This document shows, in pieces, positions 30,623 through 38,717 of a stretch of 64,000 nt of DNA. Numbering within the stretch: the stretch's first letter is position 1; each line of letters opens with the position of its first letter. A program made the position numbers and the translations under genes. The notes under the pieces were generated by a model that had not been told where the DNA came from, did not search any database, and worked only from the letters and a program-made list of their open reading frames with translations. This DNA comes from an uncultured Trueperaceae bacterium (GTDB lineage Bacteria; Deinococcota; Deinococci; Deinococcales; Trueperaceae): NCBI GenBank assembly GCA_963815215.1, contig CAWFFU010000011.1, forward strand, positions 64,001 through 128,000, given 5' to 3'.

Positions 30623-33097
30623 CTACCCCTGCGTCTCGGCACGCCAGCGCTTGCGGATGCGCCGTATGCGCGCGTTCGCGAGCGGCCGCCGAGGATCGTT
30701 CGGTGGAAGGTGACGCCGCGTCTCCTCCCACAGCTCCAGGTCGTCCCCTTGCTGGTTGGCCAGGTCGATCATTGCGTCCGGATCGCCCGACGCCAACACG
30801 GCCTGCCGGAGGCTCTCCTCGAGGTGCTCTCGGAGCTCCACCACCGCCGGAGCCTCCGACTCGGGAAGGAGCGGACCCCGATACAGCTCGAGTGCCGCCT
30901 GGACCTTGCCTTCGTGGAGGAGCTCGAGCACCTTCACGAAGTCCGCCTCGTACGCTTCCGCGATGTGATACGGATGCGGCTCGATCGAGATCACCTTGCG
31001 CGCACGCGAGATCGTCGCTTTCAACGTGCTGGGGTTCGCGCGGTCACCGTACAACGCCAACGCGAGGGGCTCCCCACGAATCCCTTCACGGTTCGACGCC
31101 AGAACCGCGATGAGCTCCGCGAATCGCAGGCTGAGCGGTGTCTCCCCGTCGGCCCCGTGCAACGAACGCTTCCCCAGCAGCCGGATCTTCACCTCCGGCT
31201 CGTCATGCCTGAACAGGGCCTTCAGTTGTGCGACTTCCGGTCCATCGCCACCCAAGAGCAGCCAGCCCGAGTCCCCCAGTTGCCTGAGGTAGCGAGCGTT
31301 CTTCTCCATGAGGGCGCGGGCTTCTTCGGGGCGGTCCCTCCGGACAAGGGATCTCGCAAGGTGAAGCGTCGCGCGAGCATTAAACGGTCCAATCGGCCTC
31401 GTTTGCATGCCAGCAAGAGCGGCCCTCAGGTGCTCTTCACCGTCGCGCCATTTCGAGTGAACCAACGCCGAACCCAAGTTGAGTCGCGCAACGTCCCGCT
31501 GGAACCCAGGTGCAAGGTCCGAAAGCTCACTTGCCTTCGTTGCAGTCTCGAGAGCCGCGCCCGTATCCCCAATCATCAGATATGCGAACACCAGGTCGGA
31601 TGCCATACTCGGAAACATGCCAGCCGGCGAAGCTTCCACGTTCAGGCTGTAGTACTCCAATGCCTCGTCATGCCTTCCTTCAACGATCGCAAGGTCGCCC
31701 AGAGTAGACCGGATTCCCTCGGTAGACGGAATCCCGAGGGTACCTTCCGTGAGTCTCACGGTATCCAGCAACTGTCTGGCAGCCTTCACGGCACCGGTCA
31801 GAATCTTCGGGTAACCCGCGACGCCTACGACAAGTAGCCGCAATAGCTCCTCGCGCAATTCATGCATCTGATATTGCTGTACTGCCCACGCCCCCCAATG
31901 CCCCGCGCGCTCATAGGCACCGGAGAAGACATGAACCTGCGCAATTCCTGCAGCGGCCGAAACGGCCAGACGCGGTCTCGCCTCCCCCTCAGCCAATTCG
32001 ATTGTCTCCTTGTAGAGACGTTCGGCCGCGGTGAAGTCACCAAGAAACTCGTTTATAAATGCCAAGGATCTCGCTGTCTCCGGACTACGCCGTGTGCGGT
32101 GAGCTCGAGTGGCCTCGCCCAACGATCGGTCGTTGAATTCCACAGCCGCACGCAAAGCCCGAAGATCAGGCGCGTCATGAGCTTCAAGATACTTGTCGAC
32201 CCTTGGGAGCATTGAGCGCCACTTGTTGACCGCTATTGCACTGTTGAACATCCAATACATGAATTCCTCTTGCCTGAACATCCAACGGGGTACTTCTGAC
32301 ATATATCGCCAGAATCGCTCGAACTCACCGGCTTCAAAGTAGGCGTTTCCGGCCTCGCCAAGAACCTCGGCCAACCGGGTTTGAGCGTGGTCAAAAGCAA
32401 ATTCAAATGCTTCGATCCATCGCTTGCGTGCAATCAGCACGTCGATGACTCCGTTGACTCCTTCACGAAATGCGGCCCCGAGGTAGTCGCCCAAGAGACC
32501 CTGATTTGACTGCGTCCTCCGATTCAGCATGAGTGCATCTTCTATAGCGCTTAGCGCTCCGCCAGCGTCCATCACGGCCCGCTGAATATCGTGCGGGTCA
32601 CGCTCCAGCTCGAATAGTTCCTGAGCTTCCGCAATCGTGATTCGGAGATCAGACCCTTCGATAGGAGAGGTGACGATTGCCTCCGCTATCGAAGGAATCA
32701 CTTCGCAGGCATGCAGCACGAGTAGATTGGGAGAGCGAATCGACTCGAGAAGGCGAAGGGCCAGTTGGGGAGACTCGTCAGCGTTGACAACGGCAACAGT
32801 AATCGGCTCAAGGGCTGGCAGGAAGGACTCAAACACCGCAAACGCATACTCTTCACCAACCCCAAGACCGAACAAGGAGGAGCCTAGCCCGCGGCGGAGG
32901 GCTTCCGACAACGCGTTTCCAACGCTCACGGAGTCGCTGCACTCAACTTCGCGCAAATCCAAGAAGACAAGGGGCTGCTCTGGGTCACGTAGGCCAACGA
33001 ACACGCGCCGGAGCCCCCACTCGTCTCCTGCGACCACGAAGACCGGCGACGGCATCTCAAGAAGAGTGCGACGTACGCGCTCGAACCACGTATTCAT
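30623..33097 (-). CDS. Large (824 aa) regulator: degenerate MalT-like N-terminus, TPR-like helical middle, C-terminal winged-helix plus short BTAD-like region
   Basis: AAGGAGG RBS before ATG 33097; TPR-like helices (LGDLAIVEGRHDEALEYY); C-terminus IRLLG...RFAELIAVLAS...TLKATISRARK...YRGPLLPESEAP. Confidence 0.75.
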   Translation of the reverse strand: MNTWFERVRRTLLEMPSPVFVVAGDEWGLRRVFVGLRDPEQPLVFLDLREVECSDSVSVGNALSEALRRGLGSSLFGLGVGEEYAFAVFESFLPALEPITVAVVNADESPQLALRLLESIRSPNLLVLHACEVIPSIAEAIVTSPIEGSDLRITIAEAQELFELERDPHDIQRAVMDAGGALSAIEDALMLNRRTQSNQGLLGDYLGAAFREGVNGVIDVLIARKRWIEAFEFAFDHAQTRLAEVLGEAGNAYFEAGEFERFWRYMSEVPRWMFRQEEFMYWMFNSAIAVNKWRSMLPRVDKYLEAHDAPDLRALRAAVEFNDRSLGEATRAHRTRRSPETARSLAFINEFLGDFTAAERLYKETIELAEGEARPRLAVSAAAGIAQVHVFSGAYERAGHWGAWAVQQYQMHELREELLRLLVVGVAGYPKILTGAVKAARQLLDTVRLTEGTLGIPSTEGIRSTLGDLAIVEGRHDEALEYYSLNVEASPAGMFPSMASDLVFAYLMIGDTGAALETATKASELSDLAPGFQRDVARLNLGSALVHSKWRDGEEHLRAALAGMQTRPIGPFNARATLHLARSLVRRDRPEEARALMEKNARYLRQLGDSGWLLLGGDGPEVAQLKALFRHDEPEVKIRLLGKRSLHGADGETPLSLRFAELIAVLASNREGIRGEPLALALYGDRANPSTLKATISRARKVISIEPHPYHIAEAYEADFVKVLELLHEGKVQAALELYRGPLLPESEAPAVVELREHLEESLRQAVLASGDPDAMIDLANQQGDDLELWEETRRHLPPNDPRRPLANARIRRIRKRWRAETQG

Positions 33098-33230
33098 CTT
33101 GCCCTCCTTGTCAACTACTCCTCCTTGCTGTAGCCCCCGTGGGTCTGGTCTGAGTCCCCAACCCCCGTACAGCAAGCCTCAACTACTTGTTCCTGATCTT
33201 CCACCTCGGCAACCATCTATGCTCAGTTCA

Positions 33231-34418
33231 ATGCCGCTCTCCCCCCAGGCACTTAGGCGTCGCGCAAAGAAGTTCCTCGTGCGGAATCAGCTCCAGCTGT
33301 TTGTCCCCGTCCTTCCTGGACTAGAGCGCCTGACGGCCGAGCAGGCGAAGTCTATTGGCCAAGAGATCCGAATCGTGCACGGCGGCATTGAGTTTCGAGG
33401 TGACCTTGCCTCAATCTATCGGGCCAATCTCGCAGTGCGGACGGGAAACCGCGTGCTCCTCCGTCTGGGTCAGTTCCTATCACAAAGCTACCCCATGCTC
33501 TACAATCACGCACGCAGGATTGACTGGCCCGCCGTTCTAGGCAATTGCCCAGACGTCAGTATTGACGTATCGGCCCGCGAGTCTCGCCTCAATCACAAGG
33601 AAGGCATTCGTCAGGCAATTCTTGACGCAATTCGCAGTTCCATGGCGGAGCACGACGTCAACACTGTTCTCGTCGATGGCGGTCCCCTCACCGTGAAGGC
33701 GAGGCTCTACCAAGACAGGTGCACGCTAAGTCTCGACACAACAGGGGAACACCTTCACAAGCGGGGATATCGAAGTCACGCAACAACTGCGCCGATCCGC
33801 GAAACAACGGCAGCTGGCATGCTTCTCCTTGCCCAATCTAAATCGTATGACGTCATAATCGATCCATTCTGTGGGTCCGGAACATTCGCAATTGAGGCCG
33901 AGCTAATCGCTAGGAACTATCCCCCCGGGATGTCCAGACGCTTCGCAATCGAGAACAGTCCTTTGCACGCGCCCGGAATGCTTCGCCACATCGGCCGGCA
34001 GCTGCTCGCGAGTGCTAGCGACCATTCCACTCAGACTGTTCTCGGCTTCGACATCTCGCCGACTGCAATACAATCAGCCAAATACAATGCCGACAAGGCC
34101 CCCACGACAGGGGTCAAGTTCGCTGTGTGCGACGCTTTGGCACTGGACTTCAGCAGTCTCCTACCCGAAGGGACGAAAGGGTTGATCGCGGCCAACCTTC
34201 CCTATGGAGTCCGGCTTGGAACGCGCACGAAGACGCAGTCCTTGGTACGAGCCTTCTGCTCGGTCGTCGCCCGAACTGCTGTGGGATGGGACTTTCTGCT
34301 GATCATGCCAGAAGCAGACCCGGTTCGCGAACCGGGTCTGCTGGTTGAGCGTACACTTTCATTTTCCAACGGAGGCATCCCGGTAGTCGCTTCGTTGGGA
34401 CGTGTGGAGCAACGGTAA
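33231..34418 (+). CDS. THUMP-domain SAM-dependent RNA methyltransferase (RlmL-like)
   Basis: SLDTTGEHLHKRGYR, APIRETTAAGML, DPFCGSGTFAIEA, ANLPYG; TATGCT -10 shortly before ATG 33231. Confidence 0.85.
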   Translation: MPLSPQALRRRAKKFLVRNQLQLFVPVLPGLERLTAEQAKSIGQEIRIVHGGIEFRGDLASIYRANLAVRTGNRVLLRLGQFLSQSYPMLYNHARRIDWPAVLGNCPDVSIDVSARESRLNHKEGIRQAILDAIRSSMAEHDVNTVLVDGGPLTVKARLYQDRCTLSLDTTGEHLHKRGYRSHATTAPIRETTAAGMLLLAQSKSYDVIIDPFCGSGTFAIEAELIARNYPPGMSRRFAIENSPLHAPGMLRHIGRQLLASASDHSTQTVLGFDISPTAIQSAKYNADKAPTTGVKFAVCDALALDFSSLLPEGTKGLIAANLPYGVRLGTRTKTQSLVRAFCSVVARTAVGWDFLLIMPEADPVREPGLLVERTLSFSNGGIPVVASLGRVEQR

Positions 34419-34456
34419 CGGTTGCGCGCAGCCCGCAGTCGCAAGTGCCCCGCATA

Positions 34457-35446
34457 TCAGATCGCGAACGGCGCGACCGACTCAGCCTTGGCCGACCCGT
34501 TGACCGAAGGGCTAGCGATCGCGGTACCATACTCGACCTGGCCTGCGTCTATCAACGATTCGAAGACAGGCACGATACTCGGATCAAACTGCGTTCCTGC
34601 ACCGTTCACAACGTACCTCAGGGCCTGTCCAACAGGCATGGGGCTTCTGTAAGGCCGCAAACTGGTCAGAGCCTCAAAGACATCCGCGATAGCGATGATG
34701 CGGGACAACTTCGGAATCTCGTCTCCTCGATATCCGAGAGGGTACCCGAGCCCGTCCCATCGCTCATGATGAGCTCGAACCACGTCAGCAATTGGTCTGA
34801 AGCCCTGAGACACGGACGCCAATAGATCTGCGCCATAACCGGGATGCCGCCGGATCTCGGCAAATTCGTCTTCCGAAAGTCGACCATTCTTCATAAGGAT
34901 GTACTCGGGCACAGCAATCTTTCCAATGTCATGGAGAAGGGCGGCCCAGTAGAGCACGTCCAAATCCTCCGCGCTCAATCCCAGGGCTAGGCCGAGAGCA
35001 ACCGCGTTCTTTGCTACGCGACGAGAATGTCCTTGGGTATGATCATCGCGGACCTCAACCGTGCGCGCAAGGCTTTCGAGAACCCTGTCTCGACCGAGAC
35101 TCGACGAACCACGGTCGATGTGCTGCATGGCCGAGGATGCTTTCGGCGCATGCCGACGTCGCAAGAGCCACGCACTCGCCCCAGCAAAGGCGACATACAG
35201 CACCGCCTGTACTACCCACGGTTCGCGTACTTGCACGAATGTCGGAATTGTCGCGTCCATCGCAGCAACCAGGCCTACCCCAAGAGCAAAGGACAGCCCC
35301 CACGAGTACGCGGCTAGCAGGATTGGAATATACAGCAACTGGAGCGCGGCCAGACGAGTCGAAGGAATCACGATGGACACGATTACCAGGACCATCAGTA
35401 GCGCTAGAACACCAATTCCCTTGGCCGGCAGGCCGTTTGAGCGCAT
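34457..35446 (-). CDS. Membrane-anchored HD-GYP phosphodiesterase (start uncertain: 35446 or 35527)
   Basis: About four N-terminal TM segments; HTQGHSRRV, ALLHDIGK, HHERWDGLGYP, IADVFEALTSLRPYR. Confidence 0.88.
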   Translation of the reverse strand: MRSNGLPAKGIGVLALLMVLVIVSIVIPSTRLAALQLLYIPILLAAYSWGLSFALGVGLVAAMDATIPTFVQVREPWVVQAVLYVAFAGASAWLLRRRHAPKASSAMQHIDRGSSSLGRDRVLESLARTVEVRDDHTQGHSRRVAKNAVALGLALGLSAEDLDVLYWAALLHDIGKIAVPEYILMKNGRLSEDEFAEIRRHPGYGADLLASVSQGFRPIADVVRAHHERWDGLGYPLGYRGDEIPKLSRIIAIADVFEALTSLRPYRSPMPVGQALRYVVNGAGTQFDPSIVPVFESLIDAGQVEYGTAIASPSVNGSAKAESVAPFAI

Positions 35447-35614
35447 CGCCGATCCAGAATCAAGAATCGCGCGCAGCCGCGATATGGCCTTGATTGCGCT
35501 CCTCACGTTGAAGCTCCGGATCTCCACCCCATGATTGCCAAATGCGACAACTCAGGTTTGAGGAAGACGCGTACTCCCACGGCTGACGCCTCCTTTCGGC
35601 GTAACCGCAAAGTA

Positions 35615-35653
35615 GCAGGGTGACGCTTATTGTCCGTATAAACGCCACCCTAC
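35615..35653 (-). terminator. 16-bp hairpin downstream of the propeptide ORF
   Basis: Minus strand GTAGGGTGGCGTTTAT-ACGGACA-ATAAGCGTCACCCTGC followed by TACTTT; three G-U pairs form only on the minus strand. Confidence 0.55.
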
Positions 35654-35722
35654 ACGCACGTCTGGCAAGTTCTCAATCCGTTACGGCGTGCCTACTCCTC
35701 AAGCTGAGTCAGACTGCCAAAG

Positions 35723-35824
35723 CTACCTCTTGATCATGCTCACACCAGCCGTTGCAACGAACGGCATGGCGGCAAGGGCAGCAAACACGATTGCGGCAAA
35801 GATGCGCTTCCCAGTGTTCTTCAT
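35723..35824 (-). CDS. 33-aa secreted propeptide MKNTGKRIFAAIVFAALAAMPFVATAGVSMIKR (candidate signalling-peptide precursor)
   Basis: Below the ORF-track cut-off; translated manually. Basic n-region, 16-aa h-region, A-T-A cleavage motif, 7-aa tail; GGGAGG 12 nt upstream; own sigma70-type promoter. Confidence 0.75.
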   Translation of the reverse strand: MKNTGKRIFAAIVFAALAAMPFVATAGVSMIKR

Positions 35825-36072
35825 ATGTGGTCCCATCCTCCCGTTTGGCCTGCGAAAGGCCACAACTACCTACACAGGTCTCCCAAAGCCTGAGTAGTCG
35901 CCTGCTGGTCTCCCAACCTCGCAGACAAATGACTGGCGGTACTCCGCCACCCTACGAACTGTTTGGAGCTTGAATTAGGAGTGAACCGAACCTCTCCTAT
36001 TAGCTCCCATCTCTTCCTGCACGGCGCCCAGAGGACCCCGAATCAAGCTGGCCTCCCAACCACCTTGATATG
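35825..36072 (-). promoter_or_regulatory. ~245-nt structured 5' leader of the propeptide mRNA
   Basis: Six consecutive hairpins, three with UGGGAG at the apex (36053-36058, 35910-35915, 35880-35885); G-U pairs favour the minus strand. Confidence 0.6.
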
Positions 36073-36078
36073 CGTTAC

Positions 36079-36108
36079 AAGCTACCACGTTGGGCAATGT
36101 ATCGTCAA
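36079..36108 (-). promoter_or_regulatory. sigma70-type promoter for the leader and propeptide
   Basis: TTGACG (36103-36108), 18-nt spacer, extended -10 TG-G-TAGCTT (36079-36084). Confidence 0.65.
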
Positions 36109-36144
36109 CGACGCTGGCATTCATCAGGAGCTTCGACCTAGGCG

Positions 36145-36150
36145 TATAAT
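36145..36150 (+). promoter_or_regulatory. -10 element for the divergent TPR regulator
   Basis: Perfect TATAAT about 170 nt upstream of ATG 36318; no clear -35. Confidence 0.45.
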
Positions 36151-36317
36151 GGCGCTTCCACACGGCTTTAGTGGGATGCGCCTGTGGTCAATTGCGCGCA
36201 CCTAGAGCACCGAATACATTATCGTCGCCTAGGGTAGCCTCTCGGTTCAGTAGCAGCGGGCCTCTCACCTCAGCCCTGAGGCGCACCGCGTGGGCTAGAA
36301 AGGCCCTTGGAACAACG

Positions 36318-37982
36318 ATGAGTGAATCCGTACAGATGATGGTTACTAGGAGATTCCCCGGAATCCATCTCGAAAGTGAGGTCCAGGGTTGGGTCTTCCT
36401 CGAGGAGTTCGAGAAGGGCGTGGCAAGCTACGAAGCCACTACGACGCCCACGGCCAAAGACGATCGTTGGCTTGGTGTCTGCTACTTCCAGCTCTTCCGT
36501 GATCTTGATGCACTTGAGGCATTCTATCGAGCGATCAATCGCGGTGAAGACGCAGCTCGGGTGAACGCGGCGCATCTTCTCAAGTTTGTCGAACGATCTG
36601 AGGAAGCCAAGGAAGAACTCTCGAAGGTCGACCCCGAAACTCTCTGCACGTACGACAGGGTTCTATATCATCGGGTCCTTAGCATTCATGAAGAGAACAG
36701 CGGAAATCTTCGAGATGCCCTGAATGCTGCGGAAGAGGCGTGGCGACGTGTCCAGGGCATGCCTGAGTTCGGCCTACTTGCGCCAGCAATTCTTGTTCAA
36801 TTGGCAATCCTCCACGGGCGCATTGGAAGATCCCAGAGGGCCCTATGGTTTCTCGAACGGGGGCTGCAGTTCACAGGACCACTGGAGAATCTGAAGGTCA
36901 GATTGGGGCGGGCCGCCCTACTCATCAACCTTGGTCGATATCAGGAGGCACATGCAGAGCTAGAGTCAGTCGACCTAAGCGAGGCCCCTGCTTACCAGGT
37001 CCAGCAGCGCCTCCTTCACGGGGAACTTGATTGGGCGACTGGAAATCTGGAGCGCGCGATCCAGCAGTTCACGGCAGCATCTCAATCCGCCTTCGCACTC
37101 CAGGCCACGTACGAAGAGTTCCAGTGCCGTTTGTCGCTCGCATGCATTGTGGGAGCACGGAGGGACTTCTCCGTCGCGACGGACCATATGACCCGGGCAC
37201 AAGCACTTATTACCGACCGATCGGACCGCTTGGTCTACCGGTTCCGGGAAGTGCTCTTGCTCTATTGGATGGGCACGTATAAGCCGCAACATGCTCTTGA
37301 AGAGTTTGGGGCACTGGTGGTCGAGTTTGGTGAGATGGGCCTTCTTCAGGAACAGTGCTCCGTACACCTCCACATCGCGAACATCCTGTTTGAGATGGAG
37401 CGAGATGACTACACCCAAGAGCTTGACCGCGTGCAGGCGCTCAGCGTGTCCCTGCAGAACCAGGCTTTCCTATCGAAGGAATGGACGCTGCTCCCAAGAC
37501 TTCAGAAGGCCTCCCAGAAATCGCATGCTCGGATCGCTGGTCGAAGGAACATAGTCTTCGAAGTATTCACGCTTGGCAGCGAGAGGCTCCTTCTTGCAAA
37601 ACGGCCTGTGAACATCCCACTTCGCAGAGGCGTCGAAGTCTTGGCGTTCTTCCTGGAGAACAAGGCCGTGACCCTCAAGCAACTCCTCGCAGAGGTCTTC
37701 CCCGACGACAAGCCACGGAGCGCCAAGTCCTATTTCCATCAGTTCCGCCACCAGCTGCGTGAGAACGTCGAGGGCCTCGAGATCGAGTACGACGGTGAGT
37801 CGAAGATGTACCGGCTCAAGAGCGAGATCGACATTGTCTGGGACGTGTCGGAGCTGCGGGCAGGGCGGATCATGGGCAAGACCGGGTTGTTCCTGCCTAG
37901 CTCCGGGAACGACTGGGCGCTTGCCATCGACCGCTCTCTGGACACGTACAGGGAAGCCGCCGGAGTGCTCGAGATCGCCTGA
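36318..37982 (+). CDS. TPR-repeat protein with C-terminal SARP-like winged-helix and truncated BTAD-like region (candidate peptide receptor/regulator)
   Basis: Serial TPR-like helices (WLGVCYFQL..ALEAFYRAI, RAALLINLGRYQEAHAEL, GELDWATGNLERAIQQF); C-terminus EVFTLG...EVLAFFLE...YFHQFRHQLRE...WDVSEL...GLFLP...W. Confidence 0.8.
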   Translation: MSESVQMMVTRRFPGIHLESEVQGWVFLEEFEKGVASYEATTTPTAKDDRWLGVCYFQLFRDLDALEAFYRAINRGEDAARVNAAHLLKFVERSEEAKEELSKVDPETLCTYDRVLYHRVLSIHEENSGNLRDALNAAEEAWRRVQGMPEFGLLAPAILVQLAILHGRIGRSQRALWFLERGLQFTGPLENLKVRLGRAALLINLGRYQEAHAELESVDLSEAPAYQVQQRLLHGELDWATGNLERAIQQFTAASQSAFALQATYEEFQCRLSLACIVGARRDFSVATDHMTRAQALITDRSDRLVYRFREVLLLYWMGTYKPQHALEEFGALVVEFGEMGLLQEQCSVHLHIANILFEMERDDYTQELDRVQALSVSLQNQAFLSKEWTLLPRLQKASQKSHARIAGRRNIVFEVFTLGSERLLLAKRPVNIPLRRGVEVLAFFLENKAVTLKQLLAEVFPDDKPRSAKSYFHQFRHQLRENVEGLEIEYDGESKMYRLKSEIDIVWDVSELRAGRIMGKTGLFLPSSGNDWALAIDRSLDTYREAAGVLEIA

Positions 37983-38025
37983 TGGGCTCCGGCCCTGTCG
38001 GCAGCGCTTGTGGTAAGCTCATCAC

Positions 38026-38090
38026 AACGGAAGAGACGGTGGTAGGGAGATCCCGGAGCTGCGGTTGGGAGCCACACGCTCCGGGTTTTT
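38026..38090 (+). ncRNA. Candidate ~65-nt G-rich sRNA, or 3' UTR/terminator of the TPR gene
   Basis: Extended -10 TG-G-TAAGCT (38014-38019); terminator CCCGGAGC..GGT-TGGGA-GCC..GCTCCGGG-TTTTT (38052-38090). Confidence 0.45.
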
Positions 38091-38404
38091 CTGTCGCGGT
38101 ACCGATGGTGATGGGGCCTCCGACCGGCTCCCCGCCTGGCCCGCCACGTGACCCGGCATTGTTCTAGGCCCCAAGTCATAGGGCCCAAGGCGTCATGGCC
38201 CCGCCATACGCGCGTTCCCAATGGTTTCCCGGGGCTGCTCCTTGGCATTCGTCTTGGACGTCATCCTGAACGTCGTTGCAGCGCAATCGTCGCGCGCAGC
38301 ACGTCGACCGTCGCGCCCGGGCTACGTGCCGGCTGCTGGACGGTTGCGTGCCGGCTGCGGGACGGCTGTAAGAATCCCGTAAGACGAGCTGGCTATACTC
38401 GCTT

Positions 38405-38493
38405 CGTGGACCTGAGGTAACTCTCCCAGTACCTCTTCCCATCTCTTCCGAAAACCGGGCTCCGCGCCTCCCACGCGGAGTCCACCCTTTTTT
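38405..38493 (+). ncRNA. Candidate ~88-nt C-rich sRNA, or attenuated rpsA leader
   Basis: TATACT -10 at 38394-38399; hairpin with CUCCC loop; linker UCCCAUCUCUUCC; terminator GGGCTCCGCG-CCTCCCA-CGCGGAGTCC-ACCC-TTTTTT. Confidence 0.6.
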
Positions 38494-38717
38494 GGCAACC
38501 CCACGATACAGGCGATCGCCTTCGCGCGCCGTAAAATCCAACGCAGAGTAGTTGTCGGTCCCCGACGCCGTGAAAGGCGTTTGGAGGGCCGGCATGGGCT
38601 GCGCAATCACCGTCACGTCGACCGCGCTTCCGTGCCGCCTTTGCTTGCAGGAGGCACCGGAATTGTGTTAGAAAAGGTAGTTGCCAGCTTAAACGAAATG
38701 AGGAGGAAGCCCCTTTC

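Follow-up and report, generated by a model that had tools for sequence, protein, structure and literature searches.

The locus treated here lies in a stretch of 64,000 nucleotides (nt), hereafter the window, from an uncultured Trueperaceae bacterium of the phylum Deinococcota (GenBank assembly GCA_963815215.1, contig CAWFFU010000011.1, positions 64,001 to 128,000 of the forward strand). On the minus strand, a leader of about 250 nt (35825-36072) that is rich in hairpins with UGGGAG loops stands 5' of a gene of 33 codons. A regulator gene diverges from it, and past the regulator gene the plus strand carries a candidate gene for a C-rich small RNA (sRNA). Judged from the comparison of these elements across the family, the repeated loops of the leader are best explained as binding sites for the neighbouring candidate sRNA.

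The peptide gene and its transcription unit

The stretch formed by the leader and the open reading frame (ORF) occurs as a single copy in the genome. Read 5' to 3' on the minus strand, it comprises the hairpins P1 and P2, the G-rich linker GGAAGAGAUGGGAG, the hairpins P3, P4, P5, P6 and P7, a G-rich ribosome-binding site (RBS) region and the ATG at 35824 (Table 1). The transcription start site probably lies near 36072, at the foot of P1, because in 42 of the 49 homologous leaders a -35/-10 pair is found 17-26 nt ahead of the first GGGAG. The start site predicted in a first-pass annotation of this DNA is thus supported by comparison, whereas a simple consensus promoter scan of the window did not flag it (0 promoters found), a result attributed to the weak -10 box TAGCTT. 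In 30 of the 49 loci, including the present one (35618-35650), the stop codon is followed within 150 nt by a hairpin of 10 bp or more whose tail is U-rich, so that the transcription unit looks like a short monocistronic mRNA.

The ORF listed as 102 nt long in that annotation is real, and is more exactly described as 33 codons plus the stop codon. By means of a profile hidden Markov model built from 11 homologues, it was found in one copy per genome in 47 of 127 other Trueperaceae genomes, and three weak partial matches (E 0.004-0.009) were obtained in 235 genomes of four other families of the order. Among 47 distinct copies of 33 codons, the entropies at the three codon positions are 0.85/0.64/1.45 over the whole ORF, and 0.05/0.11/0.92 when the first nine codons are taken alone; the DNA of the ORF is therefore under selection as protein and, by this comparative measure, the small ORF is genuinely coding. 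In the consensus of the product, MKNTGKRIF is followed by a hydrophobic stretch that includes P21; behind it come A26-G27 and three residues that vary, and S-Q-R forms the end. Hardly any variation is seen in the K/R-rich N-terminus (MKNxGKRIF), and the whole peptide amounts to one hydrophobic helix with charged ends. This layout looks like that of a signal peptide, with P21, V/A24 and A26-G27 akin to a signal-peptidase site.

Table 1. Coordinates of the features discussed (positions in the window, except where a contig of genome G000 is named)
Feature	Position	Strand	Remarks
Small ORF MKNTGKRIFAAIVFAALAAMPFVATAGVSMIKR	35723-35824	-	33 codons + stop
Leader promoter	36079-36108	-	-35 TTGACG 36103-36108, 18-nt spacer, -10 TAGCTT 36079-36084
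P1 hairpin, 5' end of leader	36042-36069	-	hexaloop UGGGAG 36053-36058, then G; fold, covariation
P2 region, variable	36018-36041	-	plain hairpin within the genus; extra UGGGAG-capped hairpin in genus g12
Mid-leader site GGAAGAGAUGGGAG	36004-36017	-	13 nt are the perfect complement of the sRNA linker
P3	35965-36007	-	GGAGCU/AGCUCC around an inner hairpin; 5' strand overlaps the mid-leader site
P4 hairpin UGGCGG-AGUA-CCGCCA	35934-35949	-	sequence varies among relatives
P5 hairpin	35900-35926	-	hexaloop UGGGAG 35910-35915, then A; fold, covariation
P6 hairpin	35864-35899	-	UGGGAG within loop, 35880-35885
P7, plain hairpin	35846-35862	-	adjoins the RBS region; hairpin kept, sequence varies (39 leaders folded)
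Shine-Dalgarno-proximal site CGGGAGGAUGGGA	35831-35843	-	-19 to -7 from AUG; second complement of the sRNA linker
Terminator-like hairpin	35618-35650	-	72 nt past the stop codon, partial U tail
Divergent regulator gene	36315-37982	+	555 aa from conserved ATG; TPR superhelix + C-terminal OmpR/SARP-like winged helix (predicted)
sRNA promoter	38368-38399	+	GTAAGA-N5-GTAAGA 38368-38384, 9 nt, -10 TATACT 38394-38399
Candidate C-rich sRNA, ~90 nt	38406-38496	+	2.4 kb from the leader; covariance model, promoter, terminator
sRNA hairpin 1	38414-38435	+	CUCCCA in loop (UCUCCCA)
sRNA linker	38436-38456	+	contains CCCAUCUCUUCC
sRNA terminator	38457-38483	+	loop CCUCCCA; U run 38488-38493
Membrane HD-GYP-type (HD_5) gene	34457-35527	-	Pfam; downstream of the peptide gene in 11/30 loci
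850-aa TPR protein gene	30623-33175	-	relatives downstream of the peptide gene in 7/30 loci, other genera
GTAAG-N6-GTAAG site	G000 C3:356064	-
GTAAG-N6-GTAAG site	G000 C3:480903	-
GTAAG-N6-GTAAG site	G000 C3:618645	+
GTAAG-N6-GTAAG site	G000 C10:279779	+
GTAAG-N6-GTAAG site	G000 C3:1070132	+

A conserved leader of repeated hairpins

All the stems and loops that had been listed from the single sequence were found at their places on the minus strand, and the minimum-free-energy fold of the leader reproduces them. This fold reaches -99.8 kcal/mol, compared with -85.8 +/- 4.5 kcal/mol for dinucleotide shuffles (z = -3.1; 1 of 200 shuffles is as low). The leader is the only place in the 3.3-Mb genome where four TGGGAG fall on one strand within 260 nt (1 of the 1417 occurrences of the hexamer starts such a group), and it holds two of the seven genome occurrences of the searched pattern GRTTGGGAGRYC. 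When scanned against Rfam 15, the leader proved to belong to no family, with no match overlapping 35700-36110 even at E <= 10. Near the end of another contig (G000 C14:80900-81260, minus strand), GGGAG reaches up to 20 copies per 260 nt in a long low-complexity stretch rich in G/GA, possibly a simple repeat or an artefact of assembly.

A set of 49 distinct homologous leaders was collected, 46 of which entered the alignment of P1 (three have no motif in the search range) and 41 that of P5 (eight have none at -100 to -70). Both hairpins align gap-free around an invariant GGGAG, the preceding U being kept in at least 90%, and all eight inner pairs vary on both sides in a compensating manner. Paired cells amount to 77% in P5 and 74% in P1 (shuffles, 59% and 55%). 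The covariation score of 0.55, against 0.23-0.25 in shuffles, was equalled in 0 of 500 of these, and slid registers all scored lower. Homologous loci thus conserve the loops and the pairing, and the long multi-hairpin leader ahead of a small ORF, which the first-pass annotation had described in one genome, is a conserved arrangement. The pairs of P3 at alignment columns 103-109/144-150 show changes on both sides, and the distance of P5 from the AUG is near-constant in relatives (-76 to -96).

When the 3' module of 39 leaders was folded, the same string of three hairpins was obtained, followed by a mostly unpaired RBS region, and in these and the other folds the G-rich motifs of the leader are situated in hairpin loops or in unpaired stretches. 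Long leaders look like constructions of two similar units, because the sequence in front of the AUG (UUCGGAAGGAUGGGA) resembles that of the mid-leader (UUCGGAAGAG-n-UGGGAG); in the genera g6 and g9 the leader consists of one unit of about 150 nt.

A candidate sRNA gene beside the leader

When hairpin loops were scanned for the complementary motif, a 10-bp hairpin with the loop CCUCCCA and a U run behind it was located on the plus strand; it would be the terminator of an sRNA gene at 38406-38496. This candidate has the features of the C-rich sRNAs that mimic the anti-Shine-Dalgarno (anti-SD) sequence, namely a predicted promoter of its own, an intrinsic terminator and at least two exposed C-rich motifs. 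The direct repeat of the promoter, GTAAGA-N5-GTAAGA, is one of only two perfect copies in the genome, and both the repeat and the -10 box are kept in the homologues listed; the 32 gene copies listed are 76-100% identical, promoter repeat included. Four of the ten pairs of the terminator stem change on both sides, and 97% of the cells are paired.

A covariance model of the sRNA (R1) matched 95 of 128 genomes of the family when the unpublished genome G337 is counted and 94 of 127 without it, often with 2-6 copies per genome. In a sample of the phylum, the other three families gave matches in 0 of 82, 0 of 48 and 0 of 8 genomes. The search of Rfam 15 returned only sub-threshold matches, the best being ar14 with 17.2 bits (gathering threshold 58.8), and FsrA with 14 bits (gathering threshold 80). 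From these comparisons, the segment is regarded as a candidate gene of a new sRNA family.

The gene lies in a gap of 735 nt (37983-38717) between the regulator gene and rpsA, and the same gap contains a UUGGGAG directly past the stop codon of the regulator (38063-38069, plus strand). A second, diverged copy with 37 bits in R1 is present at G000 C3:870859-870938 (minus strand), upstream of an AAA-type ATPase gene; its promoter has the degenerate repeat GTAAGA-N5-GTCAGC and the -10 box TAGAAT. In genus g12, two tandem copies about 200 nt apart stand beside the module (G020 C1:1781428-1781728; G319 C10:41657-41935). The proposal that the sRNA arose by inverted duplication of a leader unit was not established: the local alignment scored 38, whereas 300 shuffles gave 24 +/- 3.9 and reached 40.

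Complementarity and joint evolution of the two RNAs

The linker of the sRNA is a perfect 13-nt complement of 36005-36017 in the middle of the leader (predicted duplex, about -28 kcal/mol), and it can pair a second time with the Shine-Dalgarno (SD)-proximal site at 35831-35843, over 13 bp with one bulge (predicted, about -22 kcal/mol). The two hairpin loops match in turn, since loop 1 (UCUCCCA) is a 7-nt complement of the UGGGAGA of P5 and P6, and the terminator loop (CCUCCCA) is a 7-nt complement of the UGGGAGG of P1.

The relation extends to the 19 pairs of leader and sRNA taken from the same genome. The best linker duplex ranges from -23.7 to -41 kcal/mol, and for 18 of the 19 pairs at most 6 of 200 dinucleotide-shuffled leaders match it; the mid-leader site is the best one in 14. 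Within -40 to +6 of the start codon, 13-20 bp are predicted in all 19 pairs (in 18 of them, at most 9 of 200 shuffles are as good), and the short one-unit leaders of g6 and g9 retain the SD-proximal site alone. On average, cognate or same-genus combinations give linker duplexes of -33.7 kcal/mol and cross-genus combinations -30.3 kcal/mol, and none of 5000 permutations of the genomes gave so low a value. Matched changes were also observed: a one-base insertion in the linker, from AUCUCUUCC to AUCCUCUUCC, accompanies a change of the leader from GGAAGAGAU to GGAAGAGGnU, and in G020 the sRNA has CCCACCC opposite GGGUGGG in the leader (a matched U-to-C / A-to-G change), which gives 20 contiguous bp.

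Gene order and distribution link the two RNAs as well. When coordinates were compared, 19 genomes of 8 genera had a copy of the sRNA on the same contig as the peptide gene, on the opposite strand and 1.65-4.15 kb upstream, with the regulator gene between them. The sRNA is present in 46 of the 48 genomes that carry the peptide gene, the two misses being 80% and 85% complete, and in 49 of the 80 genomes that do not.

Proposed mechanism

The first-pass annotation had suggested that the repeated loops bind an RNA or protein partner. On the RNA side a candidate is now available in the complementary sRNA with its predicted pairing, while on the protein side CsrA was not found in the genome. It is probable, with considerable room for doubt, that the leader is a docking platform for this neighbouring, trans-encoded C-rich sRNA, which would block translation of the peptide. 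The sRNA would expose three C-rich motifs, two in hairpin loops and one in the linker, and the leader would present the matching G-rich motifs in two units: unit A, formed by P1 with its UGGGAG loop, P2 and the single-stranded GGAAGAGAUGGGAG, and unit B, formed by P5 and P6 with their UGGGAG loops, P7 and CGGGAGGAUGGGA just 5' of the AUG. Binding would be nucleated by loop-loop contacts, after which the linker would zip onto the SD-proximal site and occlude the region bound by the 30S subunit, so that translation of the 33-aa peptide would be repressed and the mRNA probably destabilised. Unit A would provide extra affinity, or would serve as an internal decoy, setting a threshold or titrating the sRNA. 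Expression of the sRNA, pairing of the two RNAs in the cell and repression as its outcome are what we infer from sequence comparison.

Several observations weigh against this mechanism or restrict it. The direction of the effect is assumed from position, because the pairing sits at the RBS region. GGGAG is an ordinary SD sequence in this genome, as in the RBS of rpmG, and therefore some complementarity is expected of any anti-SD-like RNA. The duplex energy of the mid-leader site is not unique and ranks about 13th of some 74,000 windows of 120 nt in a genome of 70% G+C. Hairpins with a UGGGAG hexaloop are not enriched genome-wide (37 of the 1417 occurrences; among 30 permuted hexamers UGGGAG ranks 12th), and a genome-wide regulon of such hairpins was rejected for that lack of enrichment. 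A search for lineage-specific covariation in the flanks of the loop cores was null, the real genomes giving 2.14 extra pairs and the permuted ones 2.16. The genome permutation behind the difference between cognate and cross-genus duplexes takes no account of relatedness, and in only three of six genus columns does the cognate genus come out as the best partner. Finally, the sRNA family is wider than the peptide gene and often multi-copy, so that the leader cannot be its sole target. That other targets exist follows from the 49 peptide-negative genomes that carry the sRNA.

A possible further target in G000 is the G-rich sequence UUGGGAAGGGAUGGGAAGAA beside an ATG (C12:3914-3934, minus strand), which is predicted to form the best non-self linker duplex outside low-complexity DNA (-31.3 kcal/mol).

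Alternative explanations

The alternative that survives best is that the leader mainly titrates the C-rich sRNA family and thereby frees its other targets, on a transcript that also encodes the peptide. As the principal role of the leader this is unlikely, and it is compatible with docking of the sRNA on the leader. Each leader offers 4-7 G-rich motifs to the three C-rich motifs of an sRNA, and unit A, which is not needed for occlusion of the SD, often holds the strongest site. The multiple copies of the sRNA and its presence in 49 of the 80 genomes without the peptide gene imply other targets to be freed, and RosA offers a precedent as a sponge of RoxS and FsrA (PMC8216469). On the other hand, known sponges of the RosA kind are mostly non-coding, and the SD-proximal site is the sole element kept in all 19 same-genome pairs, even where the leader is short and without unit A, which points to control of the peptide itself. 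It is possible that the leader has a dual function, encoding the peptide in its mRNA while also titrating the sRNA.

Less probable, and indeed improbable in its own right, is a type I toxin-antitoxin system of the kind represented by tisB/istR-1 and shoB/ohsC, in which the 33-aa hydrophobic peptide would be a membrane toxin and the nearby sRNA an antisense-like antitoxin. The locus has the layout of such systems, with a small peptide of one hydrophobic helix and charged ends, a long and structured 5' untranslated region, and a nearby sRNA in opposite orientation that is complementary to the leader and the RBS region; in G329 the sRNA model even matches the leader antisense with 31 bits, a hint of shared origin. 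However, the similarity to a full-length antisense is not significant (38 against the shuffle maximum of 40), and the sRNA belongs to a multi-copy family whose promoter motif is shared with pilus genes. The peptide gene, for its part, is single-copy, restricted to the family within the order searched and accompanied by the same regulator in 30 of 30 loci, its N-terminus MKNxGKRIF is nearly invariant, and P21, V/A24 and A26-G27 are akin to a signal-peptidase site and not to a pore former.

Very improbable is the view that the SD-like UGGGAG loops act as a ribosome standby site or enhancer, binding the anti-SD of 16S rRNA to load the 30S subunit, with the match to the sRNA as a by-product of SD/anti-SD mimicry. 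GGGAG does act as an SD in this genome (rpmG), the loops are exposed in the folds and, in most 3'-module folds, the true SD region stays free of pairing. Against this view stand the nearly invariant U before GGGAG (at least 90% in both loop alignments), the match of the mid-leader and SD-proximal sites to the sRNA over 13-20 nt that include flanks unlike an SD, and the synteny and co-distribution with the sRNA.

A protein-binding array of the CsrB/RsmZ type, in which GGA-containing loops would sequester a CsrA-like protein, is scarcely credible: the series of hairpins with GGA loops and one motif at the RBS does not discriminate by itself, CsrA (PF02599) was not found in a six-frame search of the 97%-complete genome (the control was positive in 3 of 14 reference genomes), no genome-wide regulon of UGGGAG hairpins is visible, and the complementary sRNA explains the motifs more simply. 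A search of the genome for ANTAR found none, and a control search likewise found none.

Further candidates were examined and discarded. A switch in cis, with the 3' strand of P3 (CUCCAA) sequestering the SD, was rejected because in this genus only about 4 bp could be paired by hand and because most 3'-module folds leave the SD unpaired. tRNA-Gly(CCC), whose anticodon loop UUCCCAA could face UUGGGA(G), was dropped as a partner because only (U)GGGAG is conserved across the loops, the second U not being kept in P2 and P6, and because the sRNA accounts for both the loops and the linear sites.

The divergent regulator and a possible peptide signal

The regulator gene is adjacent to the peptide gene and divergent from it in 30 of 30 loci tested. 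Pfam detects a tetratricopeptide repeat (TPR) region in the protein and otherwise only NNH6, with 28 bits; the C-terminus has no sequence match to Trans_reg_C or BTAD in Pfam, and no RNPP family was detected by sequence. The structural model (pLDDT 87) consists of a TPR superhelix and a C-terminal domain, the latter modelled alone with pLDDT 89. By fold, this domain falls in the winged-helix class, with AfsR (8hvr_I, TMq 0.67, rmsd 3.4), EmbR and PhoB on the pho box as best matches, at a marginal E of about 1e-3. The best target-normalised fold match of the TPR model is Rap bound to CSF (4gyo_A, TMt 0.74), among TPR matches that are mostly generic.

Proteins of the OmpR/SARP class recognise direct repeats that have an 11-nt period and adjoin the -10 box, and the promoter of the sRNA has exactly this layout. 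A winged-helix protein of that type would thus be expected to drive the sRNA promoter, whose repeat abuts the -10 box, and the divergent TPR regulator is the obvious candidate. The same direct repeat, GTAAG-N6-GTAAG, with a -10-like box is also found 5' of genes for a PilT-like T2SSE ATPase, a type IV pilin (N_methyl) and a HAD hydrolase, and at C10:279779 (plus strand) the promoter is followed by a C-rich stretch. As judged from their common motif, the GTAAG-repeat promoters may be the regulon of one winged-helix regulator.

A complex predicted between the TPR region of the regulator (residues 1-410) and the 33-aa peptide scored 0.60 (runs 0.02, 0.61 and 0.60), which is weak support; the best of three controls scored 0.02, contact agreement between the runs is at least 5% and the partner has a pLDDT of at least 28. 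In the calibration of this score, 116 of 157 solved complexes and 2 of 215 mismatched pairs attained the mark; a score of 0.60 or less was given to only 18 of the 157 solved complexes and to both mismatches that passed. The predicted complex is a slight plus for a role in peptide signalling and is not evidence of binding.

A three-part peptide-signalling circuit outside Firmicutes, similar to RNPP or arbitrium systems and with an RNA feedback arm, is a speculative proposal for Deinococcota that has only a modest chance of being correct. According to it, the 33-aa product would be a Sec-type pre-peptide cut after A26 to release the heptapeptide G-x-x-x-S-Q-R, whose three middle residues would vary between lineages. 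The divergent TPR and winged-helix protein would sense the heptapeptide and drive the GTAAGA-repeat promoters, including those of the sRNA and of the PilT-like ATPase and type IV pilin genes, and by way of the UGGGAG array the sRNA would exert feedback on the peptide mRNA. The likeness to Rap-Phr and AimR-AimP-aimX would lie in a TPR and DNA-binding protein encoded beside a short putative pre-peptide gene and a small RNA gene, aimX being the small RNA gene of the arbitrium system on which the comparison is based. The present protein differs in that its predicted DNA-binding domain is a C-terminal winged helix of the OmpR/SARP type and not an N-terminal helix-turn-helix, and RNPP systems belong to Firmicutes, whereas the organism belongs to Deinococcota.

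Comparison with known systems

RNAIII of S. aureus is a 514-nt regulator, while the present sRNA has about 90 nt and three motifs. The first-pass annotation had likened the leader itself to RNAIII, and this comparison holds with the roles swapped, because the G-rich loops of the leader are the target side and the C-rich loops are on the sRNA; the leader resembles a target of RNAIII (rot) or a sponge of the RosA type and not a regulator of many mRNAs. In rot, three UUGGGA motifs are bound by the RNAIII hairpins H7, H13 and H14 (PMC4691137). Both pairs thus combine a target mRNA that has several UUGGGA-type loops with C-rich sRNA loops, one of the contacts being at the SD (PMC4691137), and the leader loops (UUGGGAG) and sRNA loops ((U/C)CUCCCA) described here are of the target and regulator type, respectively. 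The differences are that the contact at the SD is predicted to be a linear duplex of 13-20 bp and not a loop, that the target has up to seven motifs in two units, and that the present pair occurs in another phylum and has no sequence or family relationship to RNAIII and rot.

C-rich sRNAs with several unpaired C-rich regions, such as RoxS/RsaE and FsrA, and partner RNAs with two or three neutralising G-rich regions, such as RosA and RsaI, are described from Firmicutes (PMC8216469). The present pair likewise sets a C-rich sRNA against a G-rich RNA, and FsrA gave one of the faint sub-threshold matches in Rfam; the scores are far below threshold, so that the sRNA is not a member of the FsrA or RoxS families. 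The G-rich partner differs from RosA and RsaI in being the 5' leader of a conserved coding mRNA that adjoins the sRNA gene.

The ar14 / CcsR ("cuckoo") sRNAs of Alphaproteobacteria have CCUCCUCCC loops, are multi-copy and are linked to a small protein gene (PMC8034643). They share with the present sRNA the anti-SD-like C-rich hairpin loops and the occurrence in several copies, and ar14 was its best match in Rfam, below threshold. Motif, architecture and taxon differ, and while ar14/CcsR are co-transcribed with the small ORF, the present sRNA is a separate gene that would be aimed at the leader of one. Literature searches on UGGGAG loops, Truepera small RNAs and Deinococcus C-rich sRNAs yielded no description of the leader or of the sRNA.

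Genomic surroundings

Positions 31000-38000 of the window form an island of low G+C content (56-62%, against about 70% in the genome), which contains the gene of the 850-aa TPR protein, an RlmL-like methyltransferase gene, the HD-GYP gene, the peptide gene and the gene of the TPR regulator. A search against the PADLOC defence families gave 0 matches for the regulator, the 850-aa TPR protein and the peptide, and weak matches to the HD domains of Cas3/Cas10 for the HD-GYP protein.

Implications

The mechanism proposed for the leader and the sRNA is of a known kind, and its components and layout are new and come from an under-studied phylum. If the proposal is true, the opposition of a C-rich sRNA and G-rich loops that operates in Firmicutes arose independently in Deinococcota, with the unusual addition of two repeated three-motif units on a coding mRNA. 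The sRNA and the multi-site G-rich leader form a family-wide pair that is conserved on both sides and whose sites are readable from sequence, and the named positions allow testable predictions of compensatory mutations. The locus also provides a lead towards a possible peptide-sensing regulator linked to pilus genes in Trueperaceae.

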